64,000 nt of DNA from Escherichia coli (lineage in GTDB: Bacteria > Pseudomonadota > Gammaproteobacteria > Enterobacterales > Enterobacteriaceae): the NCBI RefSeq assembly GCF_030013595.1, contig NZ_CP122768.1. One strand, written 5' to 3'. A program made the position numbers and the translations under genes. The notes beneath the pieces are model-generated. The model saw only the letters and a program-made list of their open reading frames with translations, did no database searches and was not told the origin of the DNA. Below are positions 29,527 through 49,167 of this stretch, one piece after another. The number at the start of each line of letters is the position of its first letter. Position 1 is the stretch's first letter.

Positions 29527-30003
29527 TCATCCGGCAGTATTGAAGATTTCCTGTTTCAGCGGTTTGCCGTCCACTGCAAAGGTAAACTCTTTAGTTACCA
29601 CTTCTTCATCGCCACCGTTCATAGCAACTTTAGAAATAAAGCCGTTGAAAGCGGTGCGAATACCAGTCTGTTTTCCGGCGTCAACATAATACTCTATTTT
29701 GATTTGTACTCTTGTGCCGTCTTCGGCAGCTTTGATCAATTTTTCGTGGACACTATCCCCGGGGATGTAATTCACCGTAAGAGTCAGATCAGGAACATTC
29801 AGTTTACCTACTAGTTTACGGTTATACTGAGAAGAGAAGGATTTAACTTCTACAGTACCGCGCTCGATACCAGTTTCAGGAAAACCAGCACACTCTTTAA
29901 TTTCTTCATAGCCCTCATGGTTGAGAGTGGTGTTAGTGGTATCGGCGTGATAGAACAGACTTACCAGACCACCAGTAAAAATATCTTTAAATTGCTGAGA
30001 CAT
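29527..30003 (-). CDS. Major tail tube protein, 158 aa
   Basis: Small and strongly codon-optimised. Lies upstream of the chaperones and TMP and is followed by a terminator. Paralogous to the N-terminal half of 33598-34431. Confidence 0.6.
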   Translation of the reverse strand: MSQQFKDIFTGGLVSLFYHADTTNTTLNHEGYEEIKECAGFPETGIERGTVEVKSFSSQYNRKLVGKLNVPDLTLTVNYIPGDSVHEKLIKAAEDGTRVQIKIEYYVDAGKQTGIRTAFNGFISKVAMNGGDEEVVTKEFTFAVDGKPLKQEIFNTAG

Positions 30004-30058
30004 AGAATTACCCCTTAATTAAATTGTTATTACGGGGGAACTAGTCCCCCGACTTTTA

Positions 30059-33520: not shown

Positions 33521-33597
33521 CGAATCACCTCACTATAAAACAGGAATAAGGGAGGCGTTAACCTCCCAACGTTCATGTTTTATTTAGGTACGCAATC

Positions 33598-34431
33598 TTA
33601 ATACTCACCGAAATCGATCCGGTCCGTCTTAGCCACTGCGCCAATTTCGGCTGGCGTAGGCTTCTCGTTTGTTGTATAGACTTTAATCCATTCCGATTTT
33701 CCGTTGTCCTGAATATTTCGTACCCGCAAACGTGGAGCACCGGAAGTATTACACGTTAATTGCCATGCGCCATGCTCATTAGCTTGAAGATGAATTAACG
33801 ATGTATCAGCACCATAAGGGTTAGTGCTAGCCGTTCCTTTGTAGGTTACAAAGCGGTTTCCTGTCAGAGATTCACTATCAATAGGTCCGGTGAATGGGCT
33901 AACGCCTGAGCCTACGCCAAAATCCCCTTGTCGGATGAGTTTTCCCTCGGTCGCTATACCCCTTGCTAGAATCCCGCCATCTGGTTCAAGTTTAAATTCC
34001 AGTGTTACAGCTTTGTTATCACTACCACGGGTTTTATGTGATGTGACGTAAGCATCGAATATACAAAAGTACCCTGTGTTAGCAGCACTATAGCCAGAGT
34101 TCACAACATAGAACATACGGAAGCGTAAAGGTGTTTTATCCTCTACCGCTTTCATCAACATTGCTTGATGTTCGTCATCCAGAACACGGTTTAACGTGAG
34201 TGTCGTCGGTTCCAGTCTACGATAACCAGCAAGTTTCCCCGTAGCGTCCTGATCGTACTCTTCCAGAGTTTCAATCTCTGTGGATTCTGTTAGCGTAGGG
34301 AATGCTGCGACGTTCTCAATAGAACTAAAGCTAGGATCGAAAAAGTCGACCTGATTGTCTAGCTGGTTAGAGATCGACACTTCAACATGCGATCCCGTAA
34401 AAATATCTAAGTTATCTTGTGTAATATTCAT
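33598..34431 (-). CDS. Tail-tube-like protein with C-terminal fibre-like domain, 277 aa
   Basis: The N-terminal 150 aa align by eye with the 158-aa tube protein (FP-T-xxE...LTLTxN...). The C-terminal EKPTPAEIGA motif is also present in the fibre (DKPTPGEIGA). Confidence 0.5.
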   Translation of the reverse strand: MNITQDNLDIFTGSHVEVSISNQLDNQVDFFDPSFSSIENVAAFPTLTESTEIETLEEYDQDATGKLAGYRRLEPTTLTLNRVLDDEHQAMLMKAVEDKTPLRFRMFYVVNSGYSAANTGYFCIFDAYVTSHKTRGSDNKAVTLEFKLEPDGGILARGIATEGKLIRQGDFGVGSGVSPFTGPIDSESLTGNRFVTYKGTASTNPYGADTSLIHLQANEHGAWQLTCNTSGAPRLRVRNIQDNGKSEWIKVYTTNEKPTPAEIGAVAKTDRIDFGEY

Positions 34432-34440
34432 TATTACCCC

Positions 34441-34863
34441 TTAAAAACGCGCTAGATAAGAAAATTTAAGGCTAAGTGTCCCAACGATACCCCCATCACT
34501 AGAATCATCGTCATAATCGGTATTAGAAGCTACTGGAGTGATATCTGAAATTGAGAAGCCCAAATCTTTAAAACGTGGGTTATCCGGCTGAATCTGGATT
34601 ATCTGGCAAATACCCTCATGAATTTTGGTTTCATGAATCTGAGAATACAATTGCATTTCGATAACGCATTCAGCTTGCATTGCATTACCGCCACGGACCC
34701 TATTGTAAGTCTCATTCATTCCGGTGATCCAACAAACCACGTCATCACTAAAGCCTTGCTGAGTTTGTTCTACGTTTAAAGCCAGACCTAAATCTTGTTC
34801 GATAATATCCTGCAAGGCGCGTTTGATTTTCAGTCTAGGCATATTATTAACGGTAGCGAGCAT
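34441..34863 (-). CDS. Head-tail/tail completion protein, about 140 aa
   Basis: Start at MLATVNNMPRL (AGGGGG SD). Called on position between the adaptor and tube genes. Confidence 0.35.
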   Translation of the reverse strand: MLATVNNMPRLKIKRALQDIIEQDLGLALNVEQTQQGFSDDVVCWITGMNETYNRVRGGNAMQAECVIEMQLYSQIHETKIHEGICQIIQIQPDNPRFKDLGFSISDITPVASNTDYDDDSSDGGIVGTLSLKFSYLARF

Positions 34864-35137
34864 GTGTACCCCCTGCCAGAGTGATAAAGCAATCAGTTGT
34901 ATTGTCACCATTGCGCTTAACGTATTGAACTTTGAAACGCTGATTTTCTACAGTGACAATATCACCCTGCTTTAAGTCTCCCTCACGACAAAATAGAAAT
35001 TCTGTCTCTGTCATTACCCCTGATTCGTCGGTAGTAGTAATTTCATGATAAGCACGAATTGATTTACCACCTTCCACCGAAAATACAGGAGCACTTCGGA
35101 ACATTCTTGATAATTGTGATTCTGATAATTTGAACAT
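34847..35137 (-). CDS. Head-tail adaptor-like protein, 96 aa
   Basis: Small protein directly after the capsid terminator. Called on position. Confidence 0.4.
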   Translation of the reverse strand: MFKLSESQLSRMFRSAPVFSVEGGKSIRAYHEITTTDESGVMTETEFLFCREGDLKQGDIVTVENQRFKVQYVKRNGDNTTDCFITLAGGTHARYR

Positions 35138-35167
35138 AGTTACCCCCTTTATGGAGTATTTACATAC

Positions 35168-35194
35168 AAAAAAGCCCCACCGTTAGGCAGGGCT
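35168..35194 (-). terminator. Rho-independent terminator (module copy 2 of 3)
   Basis: Minus strand reads AGCCCTGCC-taac-GGTGGGGCT followed by TTTTTT. Confidence 0.75.
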
Positions 35195-35199
35195 AATTA

Positions 35200-35286
35200 T
35201 TATTTTGCTTTCGGTGGACGTCCCACCTTTTTAGCTGTGGCTTTCGCCGTAACTACCGGAATTTCTTCCGGCAATTCTTCGTTATT
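35200..35286 (-). other. In-frame 28-codon extension after the TGA of the capsid gene (candidate readthrough domain)
   Basis: Hand translation gives NNEELPEEIPVVTAKATAKKVGRPPKAK-TAA. Confidence 0.5.
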
Positions 35287-37293
35287 TCACTCTTCGCCAA
35301 TTTTCAGAACTTTCAGAGCTTCCGGCTGTGCTACAACGTAGTCCAAATCTACAAAGATACGAGGCACTACCGCACCACGGTCACGGTATGTAGTTAGATC
35401 CATATCCAGTTCCAGACCGCCCCACTCACCGATGGTAATACCGGAGAAGTCACCCAGAACGATGTGGTCTGCCGGAATAACGCCAGAAGTAACTACTTCG
35501 TAACCAGCCAGTTTGCCGTTTTCGATGATATAACCGGAAACGCCGTTATCTTTCAGGGTAGATTCCAGTTCGGCAGCAGTTGCACCGCTCATTGCAAACT
35601 TGATCGCCTGAGCAGGAACGCCAGCGTCGGTCAGTGCTGCAATTTCTTTCAGGAAGTCTTTATAAGAGAAAGCAGCTTTCTTGGTAACGCGGCTAGCGTC
35701 TACCAGTTGCTTAACCAGACCAGCCGGACCACGAGCATTTTCTTTATCAGACAGAATCAGTTGTTCCAGTTTGATACGAACAGCTTTGTTAATGTGATCA
35801 GTGATCAGGGTAGCGATGCCCGGAACGGTTTTCAGCGACTGACGGCTGATCGGGTTGCCACCAGCAAAAGTTTTCGGAGACAGTTTCACGTTCGCAAATT
35901 CAGCTTTGCTTTCCGGTGCAGCACCGTTTTCATCAACGAAGCCGAAAGCGTCAACGCTGGAAGCGGTCATTTTTGGAATAGCGGTCGGGGAGTTCAAGCC
36001 ACTGTAAACAGTCACACCCAGACGACCCAGACACGAAGCAGGAAGCAGCATTTCGATGTAGGATTCAGTCATCAGTTTTTCGTCAGTGATAGCGGTCAGG
36101 TCGGCTTTGGTGTTACCAGCAGAAGCAGCACGCAGAGCAGCAGCCGGAACGAATACAGAGCCACCACGAGCAGCACGACCACGCTGCATAGTTGCAGTAG
36201 CAGCCATTGCGGAATATTCAGCTTCGTTAGCGCCGAGCACGTCGCCATCTACCAGGGAGCGGATTACGTTATTAAGATCGAAAGTTTTTTCCATGATTTG
36301 TTCCTTATTAATTTGTTCGTTATTACGTTGAGCATTGGTAATGTTATTTAGTGCCTTAGTGCGGAATGCTTCCGGCGTCATGTCTTTAATTGCCAATGCG
36401 CGTGCTAATTCAGAGTCATCAATATTTAGTTCGCGTGCAATTTCGCGAATTTCTAATTCGTCTTCTTCGGAACGTTCAGCCACTTCCTCGGTTTTTTCTT
36501 CTTCAACCGGAGCGGCTTCACGTTCTTCTTTTACTTCTTCTGTTTCCCGAACAGTTGAACTATCATCATCAACACTTTCAGGATGTTCAGCGTCTTTTCC
36601 GTCTTCGAGATTTTCATCTTCTTTATTCTCTTCAACTTGGCGCTCTTGAGTTTCTTCAACTTCCGGTTCTTTATTTTCTTCTACCGGAGTTTCTTCAACC
36701 TGAGCGGCTTCTTGTTCTTCTTTGATTTCTTCGATTTGTTCTTTAGTCATATCGCGTTTAGCCCCCAAATTAACTGTGATAGTATTTAGAGAGCGATTTA
36801 AACCGACCGTATCGTCTGCGGGCACCGACACCCATGAAATCTCGTGAGGAATCCATTTAGAAACAATGAGTTGCGATTTAGCGTAGTCGATGTGATATTC
36901 TTTAATGTCATAACCGACAGAAATTTTTTCCATCGTACCTTCAATGACTTTATTGCGAATATCATTAGCCAAAGTGCCATGCTTAGAGAATCTAACGGTC
37001 GCACGGCCTACGTTATCCGCATCGATTCGAGCGTTACAAACGACACCAATGTGATTATCGAAATTGTGATTGAACAGCAACGGAGCGTTATTATTCAGAC
37101 GAGACAGATCAACCGCTTCCGGTGTATGTACCAGAATTTCATCTAATACCACCATTTCTTGATTTTGCTCATCCCAAAATTGGCGCTGATAAGGCTGTGT
37201 ACTTGAGAAAGCAATTTCAAATTCGTATTGATCGTTATGCCCTTCATTAATAACTCCACCGTAACCGTTAAGATCGCGGCGAAATTTAAGCAT
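35287..37293 (-). CDS. Prohead protease - acidic scaffold-like linker - HK97-fold major capsid protein, single 668-aa ORF
   Basis: The N-terminal roughly 170 aa resemble HK97-family prohead serine proteases (LLFNHN..., ISVGY). Residues about 180-330 are Glu-rich and repetitive. The C-terminal roughly 335 aa are MCP-like and highly codon-optimised. Confidence 0.7.
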   Translation of the reverse strand: MLKFRRDLNGYGGVINEGHNDQYEFEIAFSSTQPYQRQFWDEQNQEMVVLDEILVHTPEAVDLSRLNNNAPLLFNHNFDNHIGVVCNARIDADNVGRATVRFSKHGTLANDIRNKVIEGTMEKISVGYDIKEYHIDYAKSQLIVSKWIPHEISWVSVPADDTVGLNRSLNTITVNLGAKRDMTKEQIEEIKEEQEAAQVEETPVEENKEPEVEETQERQVEENKEDENLEDGKDAEHPESVDDDSSTVRETEEVKEEREAAPVEEEKTEEVAERSEEDELEIREIARELNIDDSELARALAIKDMTPEAFRTKALNNITNAQRNNEQINKEQIMEKTFDLNNVIRSLVDGDVLGANEAEYSAMAATATMQRGRAARGGSVFVPAAALRAASAGNTKADLTAITDEKLMTESYIEMLLPASCLGRLGVTVYSGLNSPTAIPKMTASSVDAFGFVDENGAAPESKAEFANVKLSPKTFAGGNPISRQSLKTVPGIATLITDHINKAVRIKLEQLILSDKENARGPAGLVKQLVDASRVTKKAAFSYKDFLKEIAALTDAGVPAQAIKFAMSGATAAELESTLKDNGVSGYIIENGKLAGYEVVTSGVIPADHIVLGDFSGITIGEWGGLELDMDLTTYRDRGAVVPRIFVDLDYVVAQPEALKVLKIGEE

Positions 37294-37338
37294 TTAATCA
37301 CCTTTAATTAATTGGGGGCATTGCGCCCCCGTTGGTTA

Positions 37339-38850
37339 TTAGGGATCGGCTGGGGAATTTTTTTCTTCACCCTCGCCATCAACGATAATATTTAGTGCGC
37401 TCTTTTCGGCTTGAATCTCTGAGAATACTTTTTCAGGATCATCACCACGTTCAAGAATAACGGCAGTACGTGATTTAAGTCCTTTATCAATTAAAGCAAT
37501 CTCGGCGCTTACGTCTTTAAATGGATCGACGGATTCAAAACGAGGACGAATAATAGTAGTGTTGTCGATAATATGCGGAATTGCAGTAATACGAATCGGA
37601 ACAATACCACGCGCGGAATAATGGCGTAGATATGCTTCGAAAATTGGCAATACCACTGTTTCAATCAATTTGTTTTGCAGTGCTTTAACTCGTGTGCGCT
37701 GGGTTAATTCACCGAAACGTGCGGCTGAGTAGTTGATCTGGCTAGTATCACCAGTCAAGCCCTGTTTAAACACGCCTAAGCCCATTGATACGCTAGTAAA
37801 CATCGCATCATTGAAGCTGTTAAAGTCATCACCGCTTTGCGTCGCCTGGATGCTCTTGATCGTTGCCCCTTCCGGCAATTCCTGAATAGTACCCGGTGCA
37901 AAATCCTGTACTACTTCCGGCGCTTGATATTGTTCATCCTCTTCACCAGTATCAAAATCGTCACCAGAATCTTTCGGACGTTCGATAAAGCCCATAGAAC
38001 TAGCCGCAATACGTTTCTGGACGATCGCAGTTTCGCGGAATGCGTCTTGATGTGCGATATCCTTAATCACTGGCAGGAAATCAGTCACACCACGCAGGGA
38101 TTCAGACGCAAGTGGTTGATAATAATGGAATACTTGCGAAGCATCGACGCGATAGTTATCACCTGTGTAAGTCTGAGTCAGTAGGTTGATTTTACGAAAC
38201 CAATATGCAACAGGGCGCATTGTTTCTACGTCATACTCGATCCCCTGATAGATAGCACGTTCTTTGCTTATTTCACGGTTTAGCGACCAGTCGCACTTAT
38301 CAGCAGACAGGATGGAAACATTTAACTCATTGTTTTCTTTGGTTAAAACGATGAAGCACTCACCACCCATAACGCGCTCACGTTCAGCCATTACCAGCAG
38401 TTCACGGAAGTTAAAGCGACCGTTACGAGAGAAGCGTTTAGCGTTCTGCGCCCACTTCCAGAAAGCATTCTCGATCTGCTTATTCAGTGCGCTATCAAGT
38501 TTGCCATTTGATTTAACGATTGACGGCTTCGGATCTAGGCCAGTACCTACCACCATATCGGTGATGTATTGCGTGTAGCGACTGCCAACGGAAGTGTTTA
38601 AGGCCAGAGTACGACCCTGATCATAAAGGCGCTCACCGTTCGATTTGAGAGCCTTATTGAAGGTTCCTGTAATGGTGTCTTGTTGAAGTGATCCATCAAT
38701 ACGATCACCAACCAGTCCTAAACTACGAGTCGCCAGAGATTTCTGGTATCTTTCTATAGATTTGTCGATGAAAATTTTTGGTTGTTGCTGGCGGTGATTA
38801 GTTTTAACTGGAGTTTCTACCGCCTTTTTGCGTCGAAAAAGATTAAACAT
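37339..38850 (-). CDS. Portal protein (lambda gpB family)
   Basis: 503 aa, positioned between the terminase/W-like genes and the protease-capsid gene. Sequence character resembles lambda-family portals. Confidence 0.75.
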   Translation of the reverse strand: MFNLFRRKKAVETPVKTNHRQQQPKIFIDKSIERYQKSLATRSLGLVGDRIDGSLQQDTITGTFNKALKSNGERLYDQGRTLALNTSVGSRYTQYITDMVVGTGLDPKPSIVKSNGKLDSALNKQIENAFWKWAQNAKRFSRNGRFNFRELLVMAERERVMGGECFIVLTKENNELNVSILSADKCDWSLNREISKERAIYQGIEYDVETMRPVAYWFRKINLLTQTYTGDNYRVDASQVFHYYQPLASESLRGVTDFLPVIKDIAHQDAFRETAIVQKRIAASSMGFIERPKDSGDDFDTGEEDEQYQAPEVVQDFAPGTIQELPEGATIKSIQATQSGDDFNSFNDAMFTSVSMGLGVFKQGLTGDTSQINYSAARFGELTQRTRVKALQNKLIETVVLPIFEAYLRHYSARGIVPIRITAIPHIIDNTTIIRPRFESVDPFKDVSAEIALIDKGLKSRTAVILERGDDPEKVFSEIQAEKSALNIIVDGEGEEKNSPADP

Positions 38851-38860
38851 GATTTACCCC

Positions 38861-39355
38861 TTATCGCGTAAGACGTAATTTGATATTTTTAATCGGACTA
38901 ATTCCCTGTTTACGTCGTTCGGCTTGAATTAATTTAGATAACTGACGTTCATAATCAGTCTTCAATTGCTGGAGAACACCCAATGACTCATAGGCGAAAG
39001 TATTCCCTTTCACGGTCATTTGAGATAATGCGGCTTCGTCCCCAGATAGCCTGGCGAAAATAACTTGCTCGATTACAGAAATCGTTTCGCGCAGATGTTC
39101 TTTTTTGGATTGTTTGGCGAATACTGGCAAAACAGTTAATTCCTGCATTGATACCAGTTCTTCATCAAGAGTAATAACAATGGTCATCTTCCCTTCTGGA
39201 AAGTCTAACGTTTTAATCTCGTGATTTTCCGGTGCATCATCGACCTGATAGACAATGCCTTTGCTATTACCTACCTGAATTGTTACACCCTCTTCATTCG
39301 CAAGCGTGACTTTTTCGCCTTTACGAATTACTAAGGGAATTAGTTCTAAACTCAT
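38861..39355 (-). CDS. Head-tail joining protein, gpW-like C-terminal half with extra N-terminal domain
   Basis: 164 aa, between terminase and portal as lambda W is. The C-terminal helix-rich segment is gpW-like. Confidence 0.45.
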   Translation of the reverse strand: MSLELIPLVIRKGEKVTLANEEGVTIQVGNSKGIVYQVDDAPENHEIKTLDFPEGKMTIVITLDEELVSMQELTVLPVFAKQSKKEHLRETISVIEQVIFARLSGDEAALSQMTVKGNTFAYESLGVLQQLKTDYERQLSKLIQAERRKQGISPIKNIKLRLTR

Positions 39356-39427
39356 AATTACCCCTTATTTAATTGTTATTGGATTAACAATATTTAGGAG
39401 TAAGCCGCCCCGAAGGACGGCGAGTTA

Positions 39428-41332
39428 TTAGAACGATGTTACCCAGCTACGGCCTCTATTTGGGCGTCTGACGATGTTTTGACGTTGTGGTCGTGTGATT
39501 GGCTTAGTTTCTTCGATTTGCTCGTCAGATTGCGATTTAGGAGCTTCTACAGGTTCTTCTGGTTCACGGTTCAAACTATCTTTGATGGCTTCGAGTTTTT
39601 CCCATGACATTTTATTGAGTACATGACGAGAAGCAGCATAGGAATAAGCCAGGCAGTCCAACGCTTCGTTTCGTGTTTGTCCAACTTTTACCCAACGTGT
39701 GGTATTACCCTGCCGTTTCAACTGTTCAGAAAGCAATTGCTCGCAATAGTCATCAGGAACGTCACCAATCTGGAAGACAGTGTGAGGATCGCCATCTCTC
39801 AAGTTCCGGTTAATCATTTCACGGATCATCGTTTTAAGGTTGTTTACGCCCAGAATTTTAAGGGTAAAACCACCCGTTCTTGTGTCTTTTACCGGAAGGA
39901 TTGGTGCATCAACATTGCTTGCGCCTTTAATGGCGGTTAGATTTTGCCACCGACTACAGAATCGATAGATCACGTTTGTAGCTCGTCCGTTCGATGAGTC
40001 CACGAAAGCAGATAACATCGGGATTCGTTCACCGGATCGGGTATAGAATTTAGCTTTCAGGAAGTTGTAAAGCTGGTTATATGCTGGTGATTCGTGGCGT
40101 TCGCAGTTCACATCATAGAATGATCGGTGATCAACTACGCATAGCCCTTTACGAGAAATACCCAGCAAGGTAGATTCCAGACGGTCTTTTTGCTGGTCAA
40201 CTCCACCTACCAGAGCCAGTACATCATCAGGAATATTGTCTAGGCTAATATCAGTTTTCAGCGTTTCTAATTCGTCGGCTGTGCGGTCTTCGTTAAGATC
40301 ATCGAAGGTTTCACCGAGGACTGTATTGTAGAACGTTGCCAGGGACATATTCGCGTAGCTATCAGCAAAGTCCACCACACACGCACGGATAGAACTAAAC
40401 GGAGACATAAGGCGGTTAGCATGAAAACCGATTACTTCCGCGTTTGGTTCGGTGGCGACCCATTCTCCCTGTCCAACAGCACGTAGGCGATCACCCTCGG
40501 TCCAATCGGTTTCACATTCAGGGCAACGGTAAACGGCTGTATCTGGGTTGGGTAATGATTTACCGTTAATCGTATGCCAATCGAAATGTACGTTACTCCA
40601 TTCCATTACGTGCTTGTGTCCGCAATGCTGGCAAACGACATGATATTTTCTCTTATCCGAGAGTTCCCATTGTTGGTTAATCGCCCCATCACGAGCGGTT
40701 GGAGTGGAAGCAATTACGATCCTTGCATCTTCCCCGAAAGTGGTTGCGCGTTGTTCCGCTAGTTGGATCGGGTTCCCTTCGTCTGACTCATCAGCCGCAT
40801 CAACTTCATCAAGAATAATCAAAGGGAGTGTTTTACCGCGAAGATGTGACGGACTATTCAACGACATGAAATACATAAACGATCCGTTACGAAGCTGAAT
40901 AATCGATGAGTTGTTAACGGCATTGCGATCTGATTTGTCGGTGATCATCGCCTTTAATTCTGGTGTTGCCTCTAATACTGGCTTCACCTTACCAGCGATC
41001 CAAGAATTTAGTTCTCTAACGTTACTTTGCAACACCCCAATATTAGTAGGGTTACTCGCGATCCGATGGAAGATAATTCCGTTAAGAATCATGGTCTTAC
41101 CCAACTGTGCCGAACATTTAAACACAATTTTTCTACGGTCTTCGGTGATCGCGTCCATCATTCCACGTTGGAAGGGATGCAATTTAATTAGCGATCCGGC
41201 TTTAACACCATCGGTTGCAACTACATTAGCCTCTACCCATTCGCTAGGTTTCATCGTTTTAGGTGGGCGAATTGCCGCAGAGATATTTTTAAGAATCTTT
41301 TTTAATTTTGCCTTGTTCGAAATCAGTTTCAT
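39428..41332 (-). CDS. Terminase large subunit (lambda GpA family)
   Basis: 634 aa. Walker-A-like CSAQLGKT, DEVD Walker B and CxxC...CxxC (CQHCGH...CPECE), as in GpA-type terminases. Confidence 0.85.
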   Translation of the reverse strand: MKLISNKAKLKKILKNISAAIRPPKTMKPSEWVEANVVATDGVKAGSLIKLHPFQRGMMDAITEDRRKIVFKCSAQLGKTMILNGIIFHRIASNPTNIGVLQSNVRELNSWIAGKVKPVLEATPELKAMITDKSDRNAVNNSSIIQLRNGSFMYFMSLNSPSHLRGKTLPLIILDEVDAADESDEGNPIQLAEQRATTFGEDARIVIASTPTARDGAINQQWELSDKRKYHVVCQHCGHKHVMEWSNVHFDWHTINGKSLPNPDTAVYRCPECETDWTEGDRLRAVGQGEWVATEPNAEVIGFHANRLMSPFSSIRACVVDFADSYANMSLATFYNTVLGETFDDLNEDRTADELETLKTDISLDNIPDDVLALVGGVDQQKDRLESTLLGISRKGLCVVDHRSFYDVNCERHESPAYNQLYNFLKAKFYTRSGERIPMLSAFVDSSNGRATNVIYRFCSRWQNLTAIKGASNVDAPILPVKDTRTGGFTLKILGVNNLKTMIREMINRNLRDGDPHTVFQIGDVPDDYCEQLLSEQLKRQGNTTRWVKVGQTRNEALDCLAYSYAASRHVLNKMSWEKLEAIKDSLNREPEEPVEAPKSQSDEQIEETKPITRPQRQNIVRRPNRGRSWVTSF

Positions 41333-41423
41333 GTAATTACCCTCATTACGAAATATGAAGGTATTTATTAAATTGTTGATATTTTGATAAATATGGGTAT
41401 TAAGGCAGAGTTCTTTATGTCGG

Positions 41424-41453
41424 TTGACGATGGAGAACTTTTTCCGATAAAAT
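41424..41453 (+). promoter_or_regulatory. Sigma70-type promoter for the 41499 gene
   Basis: TTGACG, 18-bp spacer, TAAAAT. Confidence 0.5.
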
Positions 41454-41498
41454 GTAAGTCCTCTAAATAAAGGTGAACATTCACTTTAATTTGGAGAA

Positions 41499-41732
41499 AT
41501 GACTATGACTACTAAAGCTACTCGCGGTCGCCCTGCCCGTTATACTCGTGAACAGATGGCTGATATTGCCTACGCTTACTATACAGCGGATCGCGGGAAG
41601 GAAGCGAAAGAACAGATTCTTAGTGAACATGGGATTTCAGTAGCCCAATTCTATAAGAATATGAAGAAGTTAGACATTAAATTCTATGTTCAGATCGATG
41701 ACGGTCAGATCGTAGAAGCAACAGGTTTTTGA
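41499..41732 (+). CDS. Small DNA-binding protein (N-terminal RGRP AT-hook-like plus HTH), 75-77 aa
   Basis: MTMTTKATRGRPARYTREQM...GISVAQFYKNMKKLDIKF. Paralogue of 45446-45628. The true start may be the ATG at 41505. Confidence 0.6.
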   Translation: MTMTTKATRGRPARYTREQMADIAYAYYTADRGKEAKEQILSEHGISVAQFYKNMKKLDIKFYVQIDDGQIVEATGF

Positions 41733-41740
41733 TTCTCTTT

Positions 41741-41765
41741 GCCACTCTTCGGAGTGGCTTTTTTG
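41741..41765 (+). terminator. Rho-independent terminator (UUCG loop)
   Basis: GCCACTC-ttcg-GAGTGGC followed by TTTTTTG. Confidence 0.8.
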
Positions 41766-41793
41766 TATCTAAGTTATTGATTTTCTCGAACTT

Positions 41794-41836
41794 CACAATT
41801 TGTGGGAGTCGGGAAACATCCACAATTTGTGGGAGT
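41794..41836. repeat. Two direct copies of CACAATTTGTGGGAGT (27-bp period) between convergent terminators
   Basis: Copies at 41794-41809 and 41821-41836 are identical over 16 bp. Each contains the near-palindrome CACAATTTGTG. Confidence 0.8.
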
Positions 41837-41844
41837 TGGATAGT

Positions 41845-41871
41845 AAAAAGCCCCACCATTACGGCAGGGCT
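41845..41871 (-). terminator. Rho-independent terminator (module copy 3 of 3)
   Basis: Minus strand reads AGCCCTGCC-gtaat-GGTGGGGCT followed by TTTTT. Confidence 0.75.
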
Positions 41872-41876
41872 TCTAA

Positions 41877-42428
41877 TCAGATTCCGAAGATGTCACATAG
41901 GTCGGCTGTGTGGCGTTCTTGTTTTGAATAGTAAATCCGTTCAGCTTCATATAACGTGATAGAATCATCATTAACGACGGTTTCAAACTCCCCTTCTATT
42001 ACCCTTTCTGTGTGCGCTTTACTGCGTAATTCGGCCTCTTCCATGCGATATAAGCCAATACAGATACTACCATATACACCATATTTTTTCTCGTCGAGAT
42101 GGCGACGACCTTTGCGTTGTTCGAACGGAAGATCGTAAGCGGTTATCTTTTTGCGGCGAACTCGATCATATCCACTCTCTTTGGCATCAATCATCATACT
42201 AATCAACATCCCACATTTAACAAGGGATTCAAGGCACTGACGAATAGAATTAGTTCTTGATTGTTTTAATTCTGGGTTAGGATCGTAATATGGATTATCT
42301 ATCCATGATTCATGAATAAGGAAATGTACGTCATCAGCCGTTAAAGGCCAACCACCAACACTTTCAACATCGGTCTTAGTACAATCAAACAGATCCAGAA
42401 TGAATTTCTTTTTGTGCGTCATTTTCAT
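41877..42428 (-). CDS. Hypothetical protein, 183 aa (possible winged-helix DNA-binding protein)
   Basis: ORF. The SIRQCLESLVKCGMLIS segment looks like a wHTH recognition region. No firm assignment. Confidence 0.45.
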   Translation of the reverse strand: MKMTHKKKFILDLFDCTKTDVESVGGWPLTADDVHFLIHESWIDNPYYDPNPELKQSRTNSIRQCLESLVKCGMLISMMIDAKESGYDRVRRKKITAYDLPFEQRKGRRHLDEKKYGVYGSICIGLYRMEEAELRSKAHTERVIEGEFETVVNDDSITLYEAERIYYSKQERHTADLCDIFGI

Positions 42429-42523
42429 AATGTTCTATCCTCAAAATACTTAAAAAGTACCATGCCGATTTTCGCGGCATGGTCAAAAAATCACCATACA
42501 CCCAATGGGCGTTTGGTTAAAAA

Positions 42524-43363
42524 TTAGATACCAAAGACAGCAAGTGATCCGGCGTTCTTACGAATCAATGCGGCGGTATTATTAACGATTGCACGAGCAT
42601 TGTTAGGCTGCGGTAATTTCAAAGTTGCTATCGTCTCTTCCTCAATCAAGCCCAATTCAACCAGCACTGGTAAACAGTCAGTTGTGAACTCAAGCTGACC
42701 ATGTGCTGATTGTCGGGCATACATGTAAGCAGGAGGAAGAACATCATAGCCACAAGGCTTACCAGAAGCATCCAGACGGCGCTCAATGTGTTTAGCCTCA
42801 CACAATCCCTTAAGAATACGTTGTACCTTCGTAGAGCCTCGTTTTTCGCCCAATAAGCGGGTTAAGCTGTGCCCGTCAATGGCACGGCGAACATGAAGAT
42901 CAATTAATTGTTCTTTTTCTTCCGCTAAAGTCAGAGCCTTACGAATCCAATCAACTTCGGTCATCTTGCTTGCGTCTGGGAAAGCGTTATTCTTTAATTC
43001 TTCATTTTCTTTCTTCAAACGCTGCCATTCATCAACCAGCATTGCGGTATAAACCGGATCGGTCTGTGCGATAACAATGTAGCTATCACGTTCAGTCAGA
43101 AGATAAACTTCAATTGGTTTGCCTTTACGGCCTAAACGGTCAGTTTTTGACCAAAACGCCACTGGCGGTTTGGTTACAATTTGAGCTTCAACCAGACGAT
43201 CAACCGTTCTCATAATATCGGTGTGACGGTTTTCACGCCCCATTAGTTCAGCAATACGCCAGGTAGAAATTGATAATTCTTTCTCTACAGAGTCATTTGC
43301 AGCAGTCAGGTCAACAGAAGAAGCAGTTTTAACAGCAGTATTCATAGTAGTAACAGTATTCAT
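42524..43363 (-). CDS. Rha-family phage regulatory protein with C-terminal extra domain, 279 aa
   Basis: The region ISTWRIAELMGRENRHTDIMRTVDRL...IEVYLLTERDSYIVIAQ resembles the Phage_pRha domain. Confidence 0.55.
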   Translation of the reverse strand: MNTVTTMNTAVKTASSVDLTAANDSVEKELSISTWRIAELMGRENRHTDIMRTVDRLVEAQIVTKPPVAFWSKTDRLGRKGKPIEVYLLTERDSYIVIAQTDPVYTAMLVDEWQRLKKENEELKNNAFPDASKMTEVDWIRKALTLAEEKEQLIDLHVRRAIDGHSLTRLLGEKRGSTKVQRILKGLCEAKHIERRLDASGKPCGYDVLPPAYMYARQSAHGQLEFTTDCLPVLVELGLIEEETIATLKLPQPNNARAIVNNTAALIRKNAGSLAVFGI

Positions 43364-43451
43364 AGTAGTAATTCCCCTTTCGGTTTAGTGATATTGATCC
43401 TCCTAGTTCCGGCATCACCACCGGAACATTTTTATTTATGATAGAAATTTA

Positions 43452-43784
43452 TTACCAATCGATTTCTACTTGGTCTTCTTCATAATAAGGAATCGCATAT
43501 TCATAACGCCAATTTTCGATGATTTCACGTTCTTCATTAGTAAGAAGGTGATTGTTAACTGGAGTCGCATTGTGATTACCAGCTTCGAATTGCTCGCGAA
43601 CTTCCAGCATTGCATGAATACCAGTTAAGGACATCAGATCAAACGGAACATGCATACTACGGGAGATTGTTTCACGGGATACGCCCCAATCATTTTCTAC
43701 ATGGCTAGGGGTTACAGAAACGGTTTTGCCGGAGATTTTAACAGTCCAGTCATACAGGGATTTAGTGATGGTAAATTCTTTCAT
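43452..43784 (-). CDS. Hypothetical protein, 110 aa
   Basis: ORF with an AAAGAGGA SD. Confidence 0.5.
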   Translation of the reverse strand: MKEFTITKSLYDWTVKISGKTVSVTPSHVENDWGVSRETISRSMHVPFDLMSLTGIHAMLEVREQFEAGNHNATPVNNHLLTNEEREIIENWRYEYAIPYYEEDQVEIDW

Positions 43785-43807
43785 GTTACATCCTCTTTAC
43801 AAATCTA

Positions 43808-43901
43808 GGTCAAATAGGTTCAAAGTTGTCAAGTGCGATAATCATAAAAAAGTTTGAAGATATTGTCAAATACCACTTGACAAGACACCAAAGGGTTGAC
43901 C
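43808..43901. promoter_or_regulatory. Dyad-symmetric operator/promoter region built from TTGACAA/TTGTCAA and GGTCAA/TTGACC half-sites
   Basis: GGTCAA-N12-TTGTCAAG (43808-43833) is mirrored by CTTGACAA-N12-TTGACC (43876-43901). In addition, TTGTCAA-N7-TTGACAA forms a palindrome at 43863-43883. Confidence 0.55.
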
Positions 43902-43905
43902 TAAC

Positions 43906-44094
43906 TTACAGCATATCTAAGCCTTCATCGTAACCGTAGAAGCCATTCTGAGAAGAGAAGCAGATTGGTGCGTAGTCGTCGTCATCTTCGTCTTGTTCAT
44001 CTTGTTCTGGGGCTTCCTGAGCGGTTTCTTTGCCGTAGTTAAACATGGCTTCATCCAGTTCATAGTGGAAATCCTCTAAAAGAAAGTGAATCAA
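43906..44094 (-). CDS. Small very acidic protein (up to 62 aa; start uncertain)
   Basis: ORF ending ...EQDEQDEDDDDYAPICFSSQNGFYGYDEGLDML. It has a TTG start in the track, or an internal ATG at 44046. Confidence 0.4.
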   Translation of the reverse strand: MIHFLLEDFHYELDEAMFNYGKETAQEAPEQDEQDEDDDDYAPICFSSQNGFYGYDEGLDML

Positions 44095-44741
44095 TCTAAT
44101 ATTATTTATAAAGAGAAAATTCTTGTTATTATGAAAGGAGTGATCTGGTAGAGTCCAAAACTGGTCTGTACTTGAAAGGTGATTGGATTCAGTCGGGCAA
44201 AGCCCTCCTTCATGTTTTGATTAAATCATCATCAAAACGAAGAAGTATCTTTAGAATATAAGATCTTTCTTTTGGAGAAATAATAATCAGGAAGCAATTT
44301 GGCAACCGAAGGTTGCAATCCCGAAGGGATAACCAATACCTTTCTAGAAAGTGATTGTTACTCACTTCGTTCGTTTACTAGAATCAGTTATCATCTGGTA
44401 TTAAATCCCTTTCTAAGAAAATCCTTTCAAAAGTGATTCTCGATGCCACGCAGTGGCGTCGCAGACGTTTGGGAGTGAGCGAAGCGAGCGAGCAAACTAG
44501 TTAATTCCTTCTAAGACCATCTAGTATCATCTAGTTTAAATTAGTTGTTACTAGAAGCAATTGGTTGGCGCTTCGCGCAGTCGGGCTAAAGCCCTCCTAA
44601 TTATCTTTTTGGTTATTTGTTGTTTTTAGTTTTACACATGAGCGTAGCGAATGTGTTATATAATATCTATGCACGCCCAATCCCCCGCTTTTTCCCCTCA
44701 CTAAGTTAATGTTTTATAAAGAGTTTTTCTCACCAATCCTT

Positions 44742-44930
44742 TTCGGGGGCAAATTTCAGGGGCAAAAATTAGATTTTCAGGGGCAAAAATAGTGGGTTTC
44801 AGGGGCAAAAATGAGGGGCAAAATCACTGTTTCCCAGAATTTCAGGGGCAAAAATAGTGGGTTTCAGGGGCAAAAATGGGATGTGGAATCTAGGGGATTT
44901 TGGTTCAGGGGCAAAATTCAGGGGCAATTT
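44742..44930 (+). repeat. Iteron array: 9 direct copies of TTCAGGGGCAAAA (7 with a perfect TTCAGGGGCAA core)
   Basis: Copies start at 44742, 44755, 44776, 44798, 44811, 44841, 44863, 44904 and 44917. A 38-bp block at 44776-44813 is repeated exactly at 44841-44878. Confidence 0.9.
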
Positions 44931-44968
44931 TCATAGTGTAGGGCTAGTGTAGGTTTGAAAATCCTTTG

Positions 44969-44997
44969 TTGACACTGTGTAGGATCGGTGGTATACT
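44969..44997 (+). promoter_or_regulatory. Near-consensus sigma70 promoter P1
   Basis: TTGACA (44969-44974), 17-bp spacer, TATACT (44992-44997). A GTGTAGG box lies in the spacer. Confidence 0.65.
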
Positions 44998-45025
44998 TGA
45001 AAATTCGAGATAAATATGTTATAAT
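44997..45025 (+). promoter_or_regulatory. Near-consensus extended -10 promoter P2
   Basis: TTGAAA (44997-45002), 17-bp spacer with TG at 45017-45018, TATAAT (45020-45025). Confidence 0.65.
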
Positions 45026-45029
45026 ATTT

Positions 45030-45409
45030 GTATTGAAAGTGAAAATTTACCGATTTTCCTTCCTATTGTTATCACCGTGTTAAATTGTTATATGTCTGTG
45101 AAGATTTGGATCTGAGAGAAAATCTTGTAACAAATCTTTACAATTCATAGCTCAATTAATGCTCACCGCTTTAGCAAAAAGTGCTATGCCTTTTTCTAAA
45201 TTGATTGAATATACATCAATTTGGTTAAATCGTGTTCTTCGCTTTAGCAATTCGTGCTGTGGTTTAACACATTTAACACGTCTGATAACATCTGAATAAC
45301 ATTTTAACATATCTCTGTTATAAATACATATATAAGAGATAAATGTGAGGGGTTGAAAAATAAAATACAATCCCATATAAATAATAGTGAGCGGTTAACG
45401 CTCTTTTTT
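45030..45409 (+). ncRNA. Putative roughly 380-nt untranslated leader / regulatory RNA ending at a terminator
   Basis: No RBS-preceded ORF lies between the P1/P2 promoters and the terminator at 45389-45409. Contains two CGCTTTAGCA-N5-TGCT hairpin repeats. Confidence 0.3.
45389..45409 (+). terminator. Rho-independent terminator upstream of the 45446 gene
   Basis: GAGCG-gttaa-CGCTC followed by TTTTTT. Confidence 0.75.
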
Positions 45410-45445
45410 AAGAAATCATTAATCCACATTGTAGGAGGATTCGAG

Positions 45446-45628
45446 ATGGCACGACCTGTTAAGTTCACTCGCGAAATCATCTTAGAAATGGCTAAACGCT
45501 ACTTTGAGTTAACGCCGGGTGTGAGAATTGAAGAGTGGTTTAAAAATGAGGGCATCGATAAATCAACCTTTCATAAACTGCTAAAACGATATGACATTAA
45601 AGTGAAGATTGAAGCTACCGTTTGGTAA
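45446..45628 (+). CDS. Small HTH protein, 60 aa (paralogue of 41499-41732)
   Basis: MARPVKFTREIILEMAKRYF...GIDKSTFHKLLKRYDIKVKIE. AGGAGG SD 7 nt upstream. The longer track ORF start was rejected. Confidence 0.65.
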   Translation: MARPVKFTREIILEMAKRYFELTPGVRIEEWFKNEGIDKSTFHKLLKRYDIKVKIEATVW

Positions 45629-45742
45629 TCAACTTTGACTGAGAATTATATGATGGCTTTAAAAAAGAAAAAGCCTCCTTTGCTGCAACAAGGGAGGCTT
45701 GAAATGAACAATTAAAACTAACTTTCCATAGGAGTATTTATA

Positions 45743-46684
45743 ATGTTATTTTCCGCTAACTTTTTCACTAACGAAGTAACCAACGCTAAAGCAGTTATCA
45801 AATTTGGCACCGAAGCAAACAAGAAGATTCAGCCGAAAGTTGTTGCTCATGTTTCCTTTGCGCAGCAGAAATCCGCTTTCGCTGGCTTTAAAGCACATCG
45901 TGAAGCACTGATCGCGGCTGGCTTTGGTGTTGACGGTAAACTGCCTAACGGCATTCGTAAAGCAATCGACCGCGTTAAACCAGTTAAAGACGTTGCAGTA
46001 GACCACATCGTTACTTTTACCGTTAAGAACTCTTCTGAACTGTTCCACCTGGTTATTGCTGGTGATACTGCTATCGTTTCCGCTCCTAACATGGATTTTC
46101 AGGATACCGCTGATTGCCAGATCACCTTCGGTCGTCGTAAAGAAGTTACCGGAAAAGCTAAACTGAACTTCACTAAATCCGGCAATCCTTACTTTGCTGT
46201 ATTCTTTAACAGCCACGCTACCGAAAAAGAAGTTGTAGAACTGGTTGCTTATGAAGGTGAAGAGAAAGAACGTATTGAATCTTGCGAAGCATTTCTGGAA
46301 CTGGAAGCACAGGTGAATGCTGTTTCTCCGGTTGTTGAAGATCGCTTTGCTGCACTGGAAGCACAGATCGCAGAACTGAAAGCTGCACTGGAAGAAAAAG
46401 ACCAGATTATCGAAGCACAGAAAGCTGAGATTGAAGAACTGAAAGCTAAAGAAGTTGCTCCGGTGGCAGTAGTTGAAAACGCGGCTGATGAGGCCGCAAA
46501 TGATGAAGTAGAAGTGAAAATCGATGTGATGCGTGATCCGATGGCTGCACTGCAATTACTTCGTTCTTTTAAGGGCAAATCTCATTTTTCTAGTGATGTA
46601 GAAGATGAGGAAGAAGAACAGAAACGCAATGCTGCAATGCTTCATGATGAAATGTACGGTACTAACTTTTCTTACTGCCAATAA
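45743..46684 (+). CDS. Highly codon-optimised protein of unknown function with central coiled coil and acidic tail, 313 aa
   Basis: AGGAG SD. Codon usage of the highly expressed type, which generates long shadow ORFs on the opposite strand. Flanked by hairpins at 45673-45699 and 46690-46707. Confidence 0.7.
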   Translation: MLFSANFFTNEVTNAKAVIKFGTEANKKIQPKVVAHVSFAQQKSAFAGFKAHREALIAAGFGVDGKLPNGIRKAIDRVKPVKDVAVDHIVTFTVKNSSELFHLVIAGDTAIVSAPNMDFQDTADCQITFGRRKEVTGKAKLNFTKSGNPYFAVFFNSHATEKEVVELVAYEGEEKERIESCEAFLELEAQVNAVSPVVEDRFAALEAQIAELKAALEEKDQIIEAQKAEIEELKAKEVAPVAVVENAADEAANDEVEVKIDVMRDPMAALQLLRSFKGKSHFSSDVEDEEEEQKRNAAMLHDEMYGTNFSYCQ

Positions 46685-46779
46685 AAAAAGGGACTCCGAA
46701 GAGTCCCTAGTAAGTTTAGGTTAGGTTTGCACAACAAAGATGAGGTTATAATGAATATAATGCTACATTATTCTTTAAA

Positions 46780-46811
46780 GCCAGAAAAATAACCGCCCCC
46801 TTCGGGGCGGG
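46780..46811 (-). terminator. Rho-independent terminator for the 47903-46969 operon
   Basis: Minus strand reads CCGCCCC-gaag-GGGGCGG followed by TTATTTTTC. Confidence 0.7.
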
Positions 46812-46968
46812 AGGATTAATACTCAATCTATACTTGTTATGTTTTTATGTTGTATAGTCACTGACTATGAAAACACTGTACTGAATGTGTTTTATGGCTT
46901 TTAATCGGGAACTCTCTTTCGAAAATTCCCTGTTAAAACCACATAAGGAGAAAAGGCAGATTACAATA

Positions 46969-47253
46969 TTATTTAGTCTGTTTGAAAACGAACGTTAAAA
47001 ATTCGATTAAGCAATATACCCAAAGTACGGTCAGCATCAAATGCATAGCAATAGTTGGATGGAAGTTAAAAAGTGTCATACTAACTAGGCCAACAATATA
47101 AGAAATTCCTTCGACAATTAACGCAAGGCTAGCAAATGCAACAAACGCACCTAAGAATAATTCGCCTCGTTCTTTCGGTTCGGTTCCGAGTTTATAAGCA
47201 GAGATAGCAGCCAGAATAGTAATGATGACAGCATAGGTAATAAAAGTAGCCAT
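46969..47253 (-). CDS. Small polytopic membrane protein, 94 aa
   Basis: Three predicted hydrophobic helices. AAGAGGA SD. Confidence 0.6.
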   Translation of the reverse strand: MATFITYAVIITILAAISAYKLGTEPKERGELFLGAFVAFASLALIVEGISYIVGLVSMTLFNFHPTIAMHLMLTVLWVYCLIEFLTFVFKQTK

Positions 47254-47345
47254 AGTTTTATATCCTCTTAAAAGTTAAGCGGGGGATGTTCTCCCCCGTA
47301 GACGTTGACCATCAACATCTTTCATACATTTATTTATAACGCGTT

Positions 47346-47903
47346 TTAAGACACATCAAATTCATCGTCTTCTTCTGGTTCTTGTTCTTCCGGTTCATCC
47401 ATTAATGGTAATTCTTCTTCCTCGTCTTCTCCCAAATCTGCATTTTCGAACAAGTCCCCTACTTCATTTAAACGACGCTCGATGATCTCCCTTAGCTTAT
47501 TCTTTAATGTTTTCTGGTCATTGGCAGATTCGAGAATTTCTAGGGCATCGATCGTACAAATCTGCAAAATAGTCTGCTTCACTTTCCCGCAATATTCCGC
47601 TAGTTGCTGTTCTACATAACCGACAGGAATCAGGAGGTTCATTTTTTCCTGATTCTCTCGTTCGGCTGCATCTGCCATTGCTCTTTCTCTGCGGAGACGT
47701 TCTTGATCAATCGCTTCTTTGATTGAAGTTTGTTTAAGTGGGTTAATTACGTTCTTTAGCACCCAATCGCAACCTTCCTTTGCCGGAACACGCCTCTTAT
47801 TGGTATTGTAAGGTAGTCCCCTTTCTAACCATCGCTTACCGCCACCATTCAATGTATAGCCATATAAACGGGAAATTTCTGTAAGGGTTAATTCTTCTTT
47901 CAT
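47346..47903 (-). CDS. Nu1-like terminase small subunit candidate (N-terminal wHTH, central coiled coil, acidic tail), 185 aa
   Basis: The N-terminus LTLTEISRLYGYTLNGGGKRWLERGLP and the ERLRRERAMADAAERENQEKMNLLIPV segment resemble Nu1/TerS architecture. The gene is not adjacent to the large subunit. Confidence 0.45.
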   Translation of the reverse strand: MKEELTLTEISRLYGYTLNGGGKRWLERGLPYNTNKRRVPAKEGCDWVLKNVINPLKQTSIKEAIDQERLRRERAMADAAERENQEKMNLLIPVGYVEQQLAEYCGKVKQTILQICTIDALEILESANDQKTLKNKLREIIERRLNEVGDLFENADLGEDEEEELPLMDEPEEQEPEEDDEFDVS

Positions 47904-48350
47904 TGGTTATCCTCCATTAAATTTGCGTAATTTTATTTATTGGTTTTACGCAAAATCTAAGCGCCTAAATCGCATTCTAACGAAGGGAAAGATCCAGTAA
48001 TGGTAAGGGCTAGGAAGTGGGTTAATAGTCGCGTAGCGACCGCGCTAGGACTGCACTGATCACGTTTTAAAATCTCACACGCACATCAAAAACCGGGGTG
48101 CCGAAAACTCGCTTTATCTGACCCCGATCCAGAACCTAAATCATTTGTCAAGTCTTTCCGATTCAGTAAAGGGGAACATGCATCTAAGCTAGAGAAGCTC
48201 ATAAAGACTAAGTATGAATGCGGTGTTGTTAGTCGGGATGATATGCGAGACGGTTACACTGAAACGCTACCATTTGAAGCATTGCCGGAGATCATCACTA
48301 TCACCAACAAAATGATAAGCGAAAGCATCCTCGTAAGTAATTGATTCCTA

Positions 48351-48378
48351 AGCCCTGTCCTTGTGATGGGGCTTTTTT
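48351..48378 (+). terminator. Possible plus-strand terminator just inside attR
   Basis: AGCCCT...GGGGCT followed by TTTTTT. Confidence 0.45.
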
Positions 48379-48394
48379 ATTGGAAAAATTTTAG

Positions 48395-48724
48395 TTATTG
48401 GGGTTTACAACATTTAGGTTTGCCAATTCGTCTGGCTAACTCTTGCTGAGTGATTTCTGACTGTAAAAAAGCATTTAACAGCAATACCTTAGAGGCGACA
48501 CTCAAAGGCACTTCAATAAAGTGATCGTGACTATTTAATGGCGAAGGTAACGGGATAAGCTCGTTATCTTCAAAATAAAAATCAAATGCGGTCAGTAAAG
48601 CATCTTTTGCCGCTTCCATCGCTTCAGCAACTGTTTCGCCCTGGGTCAACGCTTCAGGGATATCCACAAAAGAAACCATATAACCGCCTTCCGGCGCGGG
48701 TGTAAGAGTGACGGGATAACGCAT
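48395..48724 (-). pseudogene. hicB: 5' part of hicB fused to 5 phage-derived codons (HicB residues 1-104 plus CCKPQ-stop)
   Basis: MRYPVTLTPAPEGGYMVSFVDIPEAL...ELARRIGKPK, then CCKPQ and TAA at 48395-48397. The HTH recognition helix and C-terminus are missing. Confidence 0.85.
48413..48421. repeat. attR core TTTAGGTTT
   Basis: See attL. hicB sequence resumes at 48413. Confidence 0.85.
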
Positions 48725-48770
48725 AATTTCGACTGTCTCTCGCATGTCATTAACCTTTTTAATTGGCGAT

Positions 48771-48947
48771 TAACTCAAACCGAGTTGCTTCAGGATTGCT
48801 TTACGCAATGGTTCTTTAATCTCATCGCAGGGGTGACGCGGCATGACACTGCGCCTCCCGTGAAACCTGAGTTTTAAATGGTTGCTGCCATTCGCTACAT
48901 CGACGCCCTGAGATTCGAGCCAACGTCTGAACTCGCTTTGTTTCACA
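48771..48947 (-). CDS. hicA: Type II toxin HicA (mRNA interferase), 58 aa, GTG start
   Basis: Hand translation gives (M)KQSEFRRWLESQGVDVANGSNHLKLRFHGRRSVMPRHPCDEIKEPLRKAILKQLGLS. Below the ORF-track cutoff. Confidence 0.85.
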
Positions 48948-49167
48948 TCGCCTCCCTGCCGCTGAGTATATCAACAAAGTAAACATTAGTGTTTACCTCC
49001 GTGTGTAATTTGCTCGAAAATAGCACTAAATCGCCGCAACGGCAGAATGCAATGCAAAATCAGGAAGGAAGATTCCAGAATTTCTTTGCGCTAATTTGCA
49101 AAACTGAATAATAACCTCAAGAAACTATCGGCATCATAGCGGCAAAAGGTGAGAAAAAGGTGGCGGG

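Follow-up and report, generated by a model that had tools for sequence, protein, structure and literature searches.

A prophage with a large serine integrase splits the antitoxin gene hicB of Escherichia coli beside an intact hicA

The hicAB locus of an Escherichia coli genome (NCBI RefSeq assembly GCF_030013595.1, contig NZ_CP122768.1) raises two questions, namely how an antitoxin gene came to be split by a 35.8-kb prophage, and what the split leaves of the toxin-antitoxin (TA) pair. The locus was analysed within a stretch of 64,000 nucleotides (nt), referred to below as the window, in which the toxin gene hicA is intact and its partner hicB is divided into a 5' part, hicB', at one end of the prophage and a 3' remnant at the other. 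This prophage-in-hicB structure, with an intact hicA paired with a DNA-binding-deficient hicB', is established. The effect of the truncation on the toxin, and on transcription at the border of the prophage, is weighed below as a set of graded explanations.

The split hicB and its toxin partner

Four features define the locus:

48770..48946, minus strand: hicA, intact toxin gene of 58 amino acids (aa) with a GTG start (K-12 comparison and Pfam)
48395..48724, minus strand: hicB', encoding HicB residues 1-104 followed by the phage-encoded residues CCKPQ and a TAA stop (K-12 comparison and Pfam)
12454..12558, minus strand: hicB 3' remnant, codons 105-138 and stop, adjoining ydcR (K-12 comparison)
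12568..48412, unstranded: prophage of 35.8 kb with siphovirus-type structural genes (composition profile; bounded by the two hicB halves)

The HicA protein of the window is identical to that of E. coli K-12 MG1655 (174/177 nt identical at the gene level), matches the HicA_toxin family (PF07927; 30.9 bits, cut-off 27) over its full length and contains His23, the sole known catalytic residue of HicA (PMC8138530). Given its identity with the characterised K-12 protein, it is predicted to function as an mRNA interferase, which would be toxic if unopposed. Residues 1-104 of HicB' share 100 % amino acid identity with K-12 HicB, and the product is 109 aa long if translation begins, as in K-12, at 48724, whereas initiation at an in-frame upstream ATG (48745) would give 116 aa. 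The 720-nt hicAB region aligns with K-12 without gaps (score 700/720). Homology to K-12 stops at 48413 and resumes at 12570, past the 35.8-kb element of low GC content (~0.42, as against ~0.50 in the flanks), where hicB codons 100-138, ending in LSLVMV and the stop, occupy positions 12454-12573 beside ydcR (10969-12375), in the same order as in K-12. The locus thus resembles the type II TA locus hicAB of K-12 (b4532/b1438) in its position between yncJ and ydcR, its HicA, HicB residues 1-104 and at least 44 nt of upstream sequence, but its HicB is without residues 105-138 and bears a five-residue phage tail, with the prophage lying between the gene halves. No second copy of hicA or hicB, either compensating or phage-encoded, was detected in the window by tblastn. 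The original prediction for this region, an intact hicA next to a hicB truncated by a prophage, is borne out, as both open reading frames (ORFs) match K-12 and the 3' half of hicB lies at the far end of the prophage. Its span of 48395-48947 is accurate in all details except for the end, which is one base past the GTG codon (48944-48946).

The only Pfam match in HicB' is to PF15919 (HicB_lk_antitox), over residues 3-67 (33.4 bits, cut-off 27). In the full-length HicB the helix-turn-helix (HTH) family HTH_3 covers residues 88-134 (31.6 bits), while no HTH match was obtained for HicB' in Pfam at E <= 0.01. The cut after residue 104 lies in the turn that follows ITQQELARRIG and precedes the recognition helix QEITRLFN, so that the HTH is broken ahead of this helix, as had been foreseen. 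In HicB, neutralisation of HicA is the task of the N-terminal partial RNase-H fold, whose helix alpha1 lies on the HicA beta-sheet and masks His23, and the C-terminal HTH binds the operator hicO, while in E. coli the HTH region also mediates dimerisation (PMC11594946, PMC10865869, PMC8138530). Solved structures are available for the E. coli K-12 hicAB products (6HPB, 6HPC, 6U0I). Pfam, the identity with K-12 and the HicAB literature agree with the domain logic proposed earlier, in which the toxin-masking N-terminal fold is kept and the recognition helix and HTH-mediated dimer contact are lost. Judged from its sequence, HicB' must have lost operator binding and has probably also lost dimerisation. 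An AlphaFold2 model of HicB' from the single sequence was uninformative (mean predicted local distance difference test score of 44.6) and was not used. At attR in other lysogens, the Prokaryotic Genome Annotation Pipeline (PGAP) calls a hicB pseudogene of 312 nt, labelled 'missing C-terminus', and the attL piece of hicB is annotated as 'missing N-terminus' in strain H2.

Integrase, attachment sites and distribution

Large serine recombinases join short attP and attB sequences which share little beyond the crossover site. The prophage encodes such an enzyme close to its left end, and its two attachment site cores can be placed to the base:

13987..15666, plus strand: large serine recombinase (integrase) of 559 aa (Pfam)
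48413..48421, unstranded: attR core, TTTAGGTTT on the plus strand and AAACCTAAA in the hicB sense, forming codons K102-P103-K104 (K-12 comparison)
12559..12567, unstranded: attL core, TTTAGGTTT (junction comparison)

The integrase ORF is full length, with the N-terminal motif YIRFSSMRQ and the Resolvase (PF00239; E = 1e-14), Recombinase (PF07508) and Zn_ribbon_recom (PF13408) domains, all of which score above their cut-offs. The 9 bp AAACCTAAA are identical at both junctions and in the K-12 attB, and the flanks are unrelated. Alignment of four junctions, including those of a sister phage inserted in ycdX, showed that the attP arms are homologous and that all partners have a TT, beside CCC or GCC, where the strands are exchanged. 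On the basis of this four-junction comparison, the crossover dinucleotide is probably the TT at 48420-48421. The split of hicB is the product of site-specific integration by the phage large serine recombinase, with hicB as attB, and the recombination of attP with attB by this integrase is predicted from its domains and the precise junctions. Truncation of hicB by a prophage had been recognised previously, but neither its cause, a large serine integrase with hicB as attB, nor its recurrence was part of that prediction. Unlike many tyrosine-integrase phages, which rebuild the 3' end of their target gene, the hicB prophage does not, because its attP shares only 9 bp with hicB. The tail codons of hicB' (48398-48412) and its stop codon (48395-48397) consist of attP-arm sequence, which is conserved in other lysogens.

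Elements with large serine recombinases that split genes include Listeria phi10403S in comK, Bacillus SPbeta in spsM and skin in sigK, the excision of which restores the gene. The hicB prophage has in common with these an integrase with Resolvase, Recombinase and zinc-ribbon domains, an attB inside a coding sequence, a very short attP/attB identity and a 3' end that is not rebuilt. It differs from them in its E. coli host and antitoxin-gene target, and their regulated, non-lytic excision is hypothetical for it. The class to which it belongs is thus known, while an antitoxin gene is an unusual target, unreported in the literature searched, where nothing relevant was found on phage integration into either hicB or ycdX.

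Among 5,426 complete E. coli genomes, 36 (~0.7 %) cover a 156-nt probe spanning attR, and the isolates come from humans, pigs, cattle, poultry and water. By comparison, the hicB half of the probe alone, a 78-nt stretch with the attB core at its end, is matched in 5,322/5,426 genomes. The recurrence of the identical junction in 36/5,426 genomes also rules out that hicB' is a chance ORF pattern. Full-length homologues of the integrase family occur in 56 E. coli genomes. The integrases sited in hicB form at least two sublineages (97-98 % and 91-92 % nt identity), and a sister lineage (93-94 % nt identity) is found in ycdX, which it divides into pieces of 405 nt and 342 nt, for example in PigCaeca_2 (NZ_CP038857.1, L007/L008). 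Strains BS74R-D and UTME-9 carry one prophage copy at each of the two sites. The hicB- and ycdX-specific integrases offer a natural switch in specificity.

The attR junction is furthermore present in four prophage-type contigs of IMG/VR, and in no GTDB species representative. When 25 kb of the prophage was compared by megablast with 50,697 phage records in search of a related isolated phage, only a T-even-like distal tail-fibre segment was matched, and among the isolated phages of the collection searched none has an integrase that is more than ~30 % identical. The phage belongs to an undescribed E. coli lineage. Its genes include a lambda-type large terminase, portal and major head protein, a tape measure, major tail and tail-tip protein, an endolysin and an Ant-like anti-repressor, together with tail fibres that comprise a T-even-type distal long-tail-fibre subunit and an adhesin. 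With the profile libraries used, none of the prophage genes could be recognised as coding for a repressor.

HicAB regulation in the lysogen

The hicAB operon has two promoters, of which only P2 is repressed by HicB, and the P2 transcript gives rise to HicB and not HicA (PMC11594946, PMC10865869, PMC8138530). HicB is the sole known repressor of P2 (PMC11594946, PMC10865869). Three features on either side of the hicAB' genes bear on their transcription:

48979..48996, unstranded: palindrome GTAAACA-N4-TGTTTAC upstream of hicA, candidate hicO operator of P2 (inverted-repeat search)
48350..48384, plus strand: intrinsic terminator of a plus-strand cargo gene, just inside attR (terminator scan; conserved in four prophages)
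47346..47903, minus strand: terminase-small-subunit-like ORF of 185 aa, the first phage ORF in the hicAB orientation (PHROG 57)

The palindrome is a candidate for hicO by reference to the published palindromic operator at P2, and its proximal half is covered by the 44 nt directly before the hicA GTG, which are those of K-12. De-repression of the hicAB' promoter, as originally predicted, holds as far as the loss of the repressor domain is concerned, but does not extend to hicAB as a whole, as P2 alone is repressed by HicB and its transcript provides antitoxin only. De-repression should therefore raise HicB' relative to HicA, a shift that would not put the cell at risk.

Downstream of hicB', the hairpin at 48350-48384 has a predicted stability of -18.4 kcal/mol and a U-tract on the plus strand, while in the hicB' sense it reaches -10.4 kcal/mol and is without a U-tract, in line with the weak hairpin previously described between hicB' and the phage ORF. 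A further 490 untranslated nt separate the hairpin from the terminase-small-subunit-like ORF, which matches PHROG 57 (E = 2.7e-11) and has no Pfam, NCBIfam or PADLOC match. The next terminator-like site on the minus strand lies 3' of this ORF, at 47298-47280, and is followed by a 94-codon minus-strand ORF (46969-47253) and then by large genes on the other strand. The proposed '47903 operon' is consequently reduced to a single ORF with a terminator-like site after it, and any read-through would be short because only this one ORF precedes that site. Immediately upstream of the ORF, a perfect 9-bp inverted repeat, TTTGCGTAA-N15-TTACGCAAA, was observed at 47922-47954. It falls within a 210-bp block conserved among related prophages and may represent an operator or a packaging-related site.

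The explanation that we favour, with moderate confidence, is that of a healthy lysogen in which P2 is constitutively on, an excess of HicB' still sequesters HicA, and transcription continues to a limited extent into one phage ORF. Under this explanation, a temperate phage has inserted itself into the chromosomal hicB by means of its own large serine recombinase. The resulting HicB' keeps the partial RNase-H fold, which covers the active site of HicA, in its entirety and would probably still bind HicA, but, lacking both the recognition helix and the dimer contact at the C-terminus, should be unable to bind hicO. P2 would then be constitutively on, and its antitoxin-only transcript would shift the balance towards HicB', leaving the lysogen healthy. 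Some transcription from P1 and P2 would probably pass the weak reverse hairpin, cross the 490-nt spacer and the terminase-small-subunit-like ORF and end at the terminator-like site, and no major effect of this on the phage would be expected. Precise excision would restore hicB.

There are natural precedents for a HicB of this form, as HicBs naturally without a DNA-binding domain are common (PMC11594946, citing PMC10865869). Like HicB', those of classes 1 and 2 consist essentially of a partial RNase-H fold paired with HicA (Gerdes 2024, PMC10865869). They are evolved stand-alone proteins, however, whereas HicB' is an accidental truncation with two orphan HTH helices, and with the P2 repressor lost.

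Several points weigh against the favoured explanation. The expression, stability and binding of HicB(1-104)+CCKPQ are predictions from sequence. The two orphan HTH helices could destabilise HicB' or make it a protease substrate, and loss of the dimer region may change the stoichiometry and affinity of the HicA-HicB' complex. That the lysogens tolerate hicA can be explained just as well by hicB-null cells being viable. The 490-nt spacer shows no clear C-rich, G-poor tract in its base composition, and Rho-dependent termination is nevertheless possible there. Finally, no excised attP was found in IMG/VR or the JGI metagenomes, which were searched with an exact pattern and with a degenerate pattern for both specificities, and activity of the phage is therefore hypothetical.

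The best of the competing explanations, which we regard as possible but on the whole unlikely, is that HicB' is unstable or inactive, and that the lysogen approximates a hicB null with some free HicA, amounting to lysogenic conversion by gene disruption. Deletion of ydcQ (= hicB) in K-12 is viable with hicA present, relieves the lethality of rpoE loss and reduces envelope-stress responses at the basal level (PMC2215328), and, according to a citing paper, these phenotypes were later ascribed to toxin activation (Daimon et al. 2015). The lysogens would accordingly be predicted to have lower basal envelope-stress responses, a non-essential sigma-E and mild mRNA-interferase activity. Like the ydcQ deletion mutants, they are viable without the repressor function of HicB and with chromosomal hicA intact, but, as opposed to these mutants, they still encode the HicA-binding domain, so that the toxin may stay neutralised. 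Truncation inside the folded HTH domain, with the dimer contact gone, is consistent with an inactive product, as is the PGAP pseudogene call. Moreover, the starvation induction of E. coli hicAB depends on Lon (PMC11594946); Lon may hence degrade HicB, and could do so faster if the tail of HicB' were partly unfolded. Weighing on the other side are the complete HicA-binding fold, retained at 100 % identity, the natural occurrence of HicB antitoxins without a DNA-binding domain, and the extra HicB' which a de-repressed P2 would provide. Since hicB can be deleted in K-12, viability of the lysogen is no proof of neutralisation by HicB'. By the same token, the original argument that failed neutralisation would imply an inactive hicA does not stand, given the viable ydcQ deletion in the presence of hicA.

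The state of hicA in the lysogens also speaks against free toxin, although with low power and with lysogens that are phylogenetically non-independent. Among the 29 lysogens listed, hicA is annotated as intact in 21, and the other eight carry a gene named only 'mRNA interferase', which is the PGAP name for a frameshifted hicA pseudogene where this was checked. Selective decay of hicA in lysogens, the trend to be expected if HicB' failed and free HicA carried a cost, was rejected, as no significant enrichment was found (Fisher p = 0.13-0.36). The one of these eight that was examined, the lysogen L001 (4854-5008), has a hicA with the same 22-bp deletion as a non-lysogen with an intact hicB, the deletion itself having been checked in L001 and L006 (951-1105). 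The combination of an intact hicA with hicB' is repeatedly tolerated, which would fit equally well whether HicB' neutralises HicA or the cells simply endure the loss of hicB.

It is also conceivable, but improbable, that the insertion has no functional effect, with hicAB being a dispensable, often decayed locus that merely provides a harmless, conserved attB. The chromosomal hicAB is often decayed, as read from the sequences available: 887/5,349 genomes (~17 %) fall in a 90-95 % identity band, in which the nine such rows sampled all have the hicA pseudogene with the 22-bp deletion, beside an intact hicB, and in approximately one-fifth of the sampled genomes the match is limited to 127 bp of hicB', with no detectable hicA or 5' hicB. 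The presence of the attB-side sequence in nearly all of the genomes probed, as compared to the few with the prophage junction, and the splitting of an unrelated gene, ycdX, by the sister phage can likewise be read as signs of a neutral target. Against this reading, K-12 cells that have lost hicB show defined phenotypes, and no repressor of P2 other than HicB is known; some regulatory change is therefore expected in hicA+ hosts, the present one included.

A phage-defence role has been proposed for HicA systems (PMC10865869). That hicB is targeted because it pays, with HicB' as a constitutive sequesterer of HicA that disarms an abortive-infection response and excision re-arming it, in effect a reversible TA switch operated by the phage, is considered very doubtful. 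Least credible of all is that the split is a regulatory device, either an 'active lysogeny' switch in which excision restores hicB or a counter-defence disarming HicA through a constitutive, non-DNA-binding antitoxin, for although the intact serine integrase and precise junctions would permit exact restoration of hicB, as in comK, spsM and sigK with their respective elements, and the proposed defence role and the antitoxin excess predicted from P2 are compatible with it, no attP or restored site was found in IMG/VR or the JGI metagenomes, no recombination directionality factor was identified in the prophage, the attP arm is without sign of selection for a particular tail and has an indel in the sister phage, and the phage also integrates in hosts in which hicA is already dead.

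Accessory features and implications of the insertion

Apart from the hicB junctions, two accessory features are distinguished in the prophage:

48168..48344, plus strand: 3' remnant of a cargo gene for a GIY-YIG nuclease, comprising its last ~59 codons (matches the C-terminus of a 355-aa GIY-YIG protein of the related prophage in L001)
16255..17022, unstranded: IS1 of 768 bp inside a DEAD/DEAH helicase cargo gene (terminal repeats; InsA/InsB ORFs)

The cargo slot just inside attR is variable and transcribed towards hicB'. Its occupants include the GIY-YIG nuclease (L001 3362-4426), an LprI-family lysozyme inhibitor and a 101-aa ORF, with further coordinates for the slot in relatives being L004 2863-3633 and L002 3301-3606. 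The two ORFs of the split helicase (15934-16281 and 17035-18210) are located between the integrase and the endolysin. The gene is absent from several relatives and the module looks like accessory cargo, with PADLOC returning weak helicase-type matches only (PbeA and Hachiman HamB). In strain PE15 (pig; NZ_CP041628.1, L002 1-2042), an mcr-1.1-pap2-ISApl1 colistin-resistance cassette is situated ~400 bp past the terminase-small-subunit-like ORF, within a related hicB prophage.

The tail-fibre subunit at 30128-32794, contained in a minus-strand ORF (30059-33520), shares 79-83 % nt identity with gp37 of RB49/Phi1-like T-even phages, and a gp38-like adhesin is encoded at 28846-29352. These gp37- and gp38-like genes suggest that receptor-binding modules are exchanged between virulent and temperate phages. 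A region of ~1.5 kb (43800-45350) with very low coding density separates the structural/Ant block from the plus-strand genes at 45353-46684. Outside the prophage, the host neighbours on the hicA side are yncJ (49168-49398, plus strand) and rlhA/ydcP (49490-51493, minus strand), and a low-GC patch (0.35) at 4001-5200 in the host flank holds an 810-nt ORF (4344-5153, minus strand).

The consequences of the insertion are probably mild. Annotators already flag hicB' as a pseudogene, and the practical change is small unless experiments show an effect. If HicB' fails to neutralise HicA, the prophage would confer the envelope-stress phenotype of a ydcQ deletion, which would constitute an unrecognised lysogenic conversion in ~0.7 % of E. 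coli genomes. If, as favoured here, HicB' does neutralise HicA, the lysogens would be natural separation-of-function antitoxin mutants, capable of toxin binding without DNA binding, and the two-promoter model of hicAB would become testable in wild strains. In either case, the integrases with hicB and ycdX as attB are uncharacterised enterobacterial serine integrases, and it can be expected that they may serve as possible tools for genome engineering.

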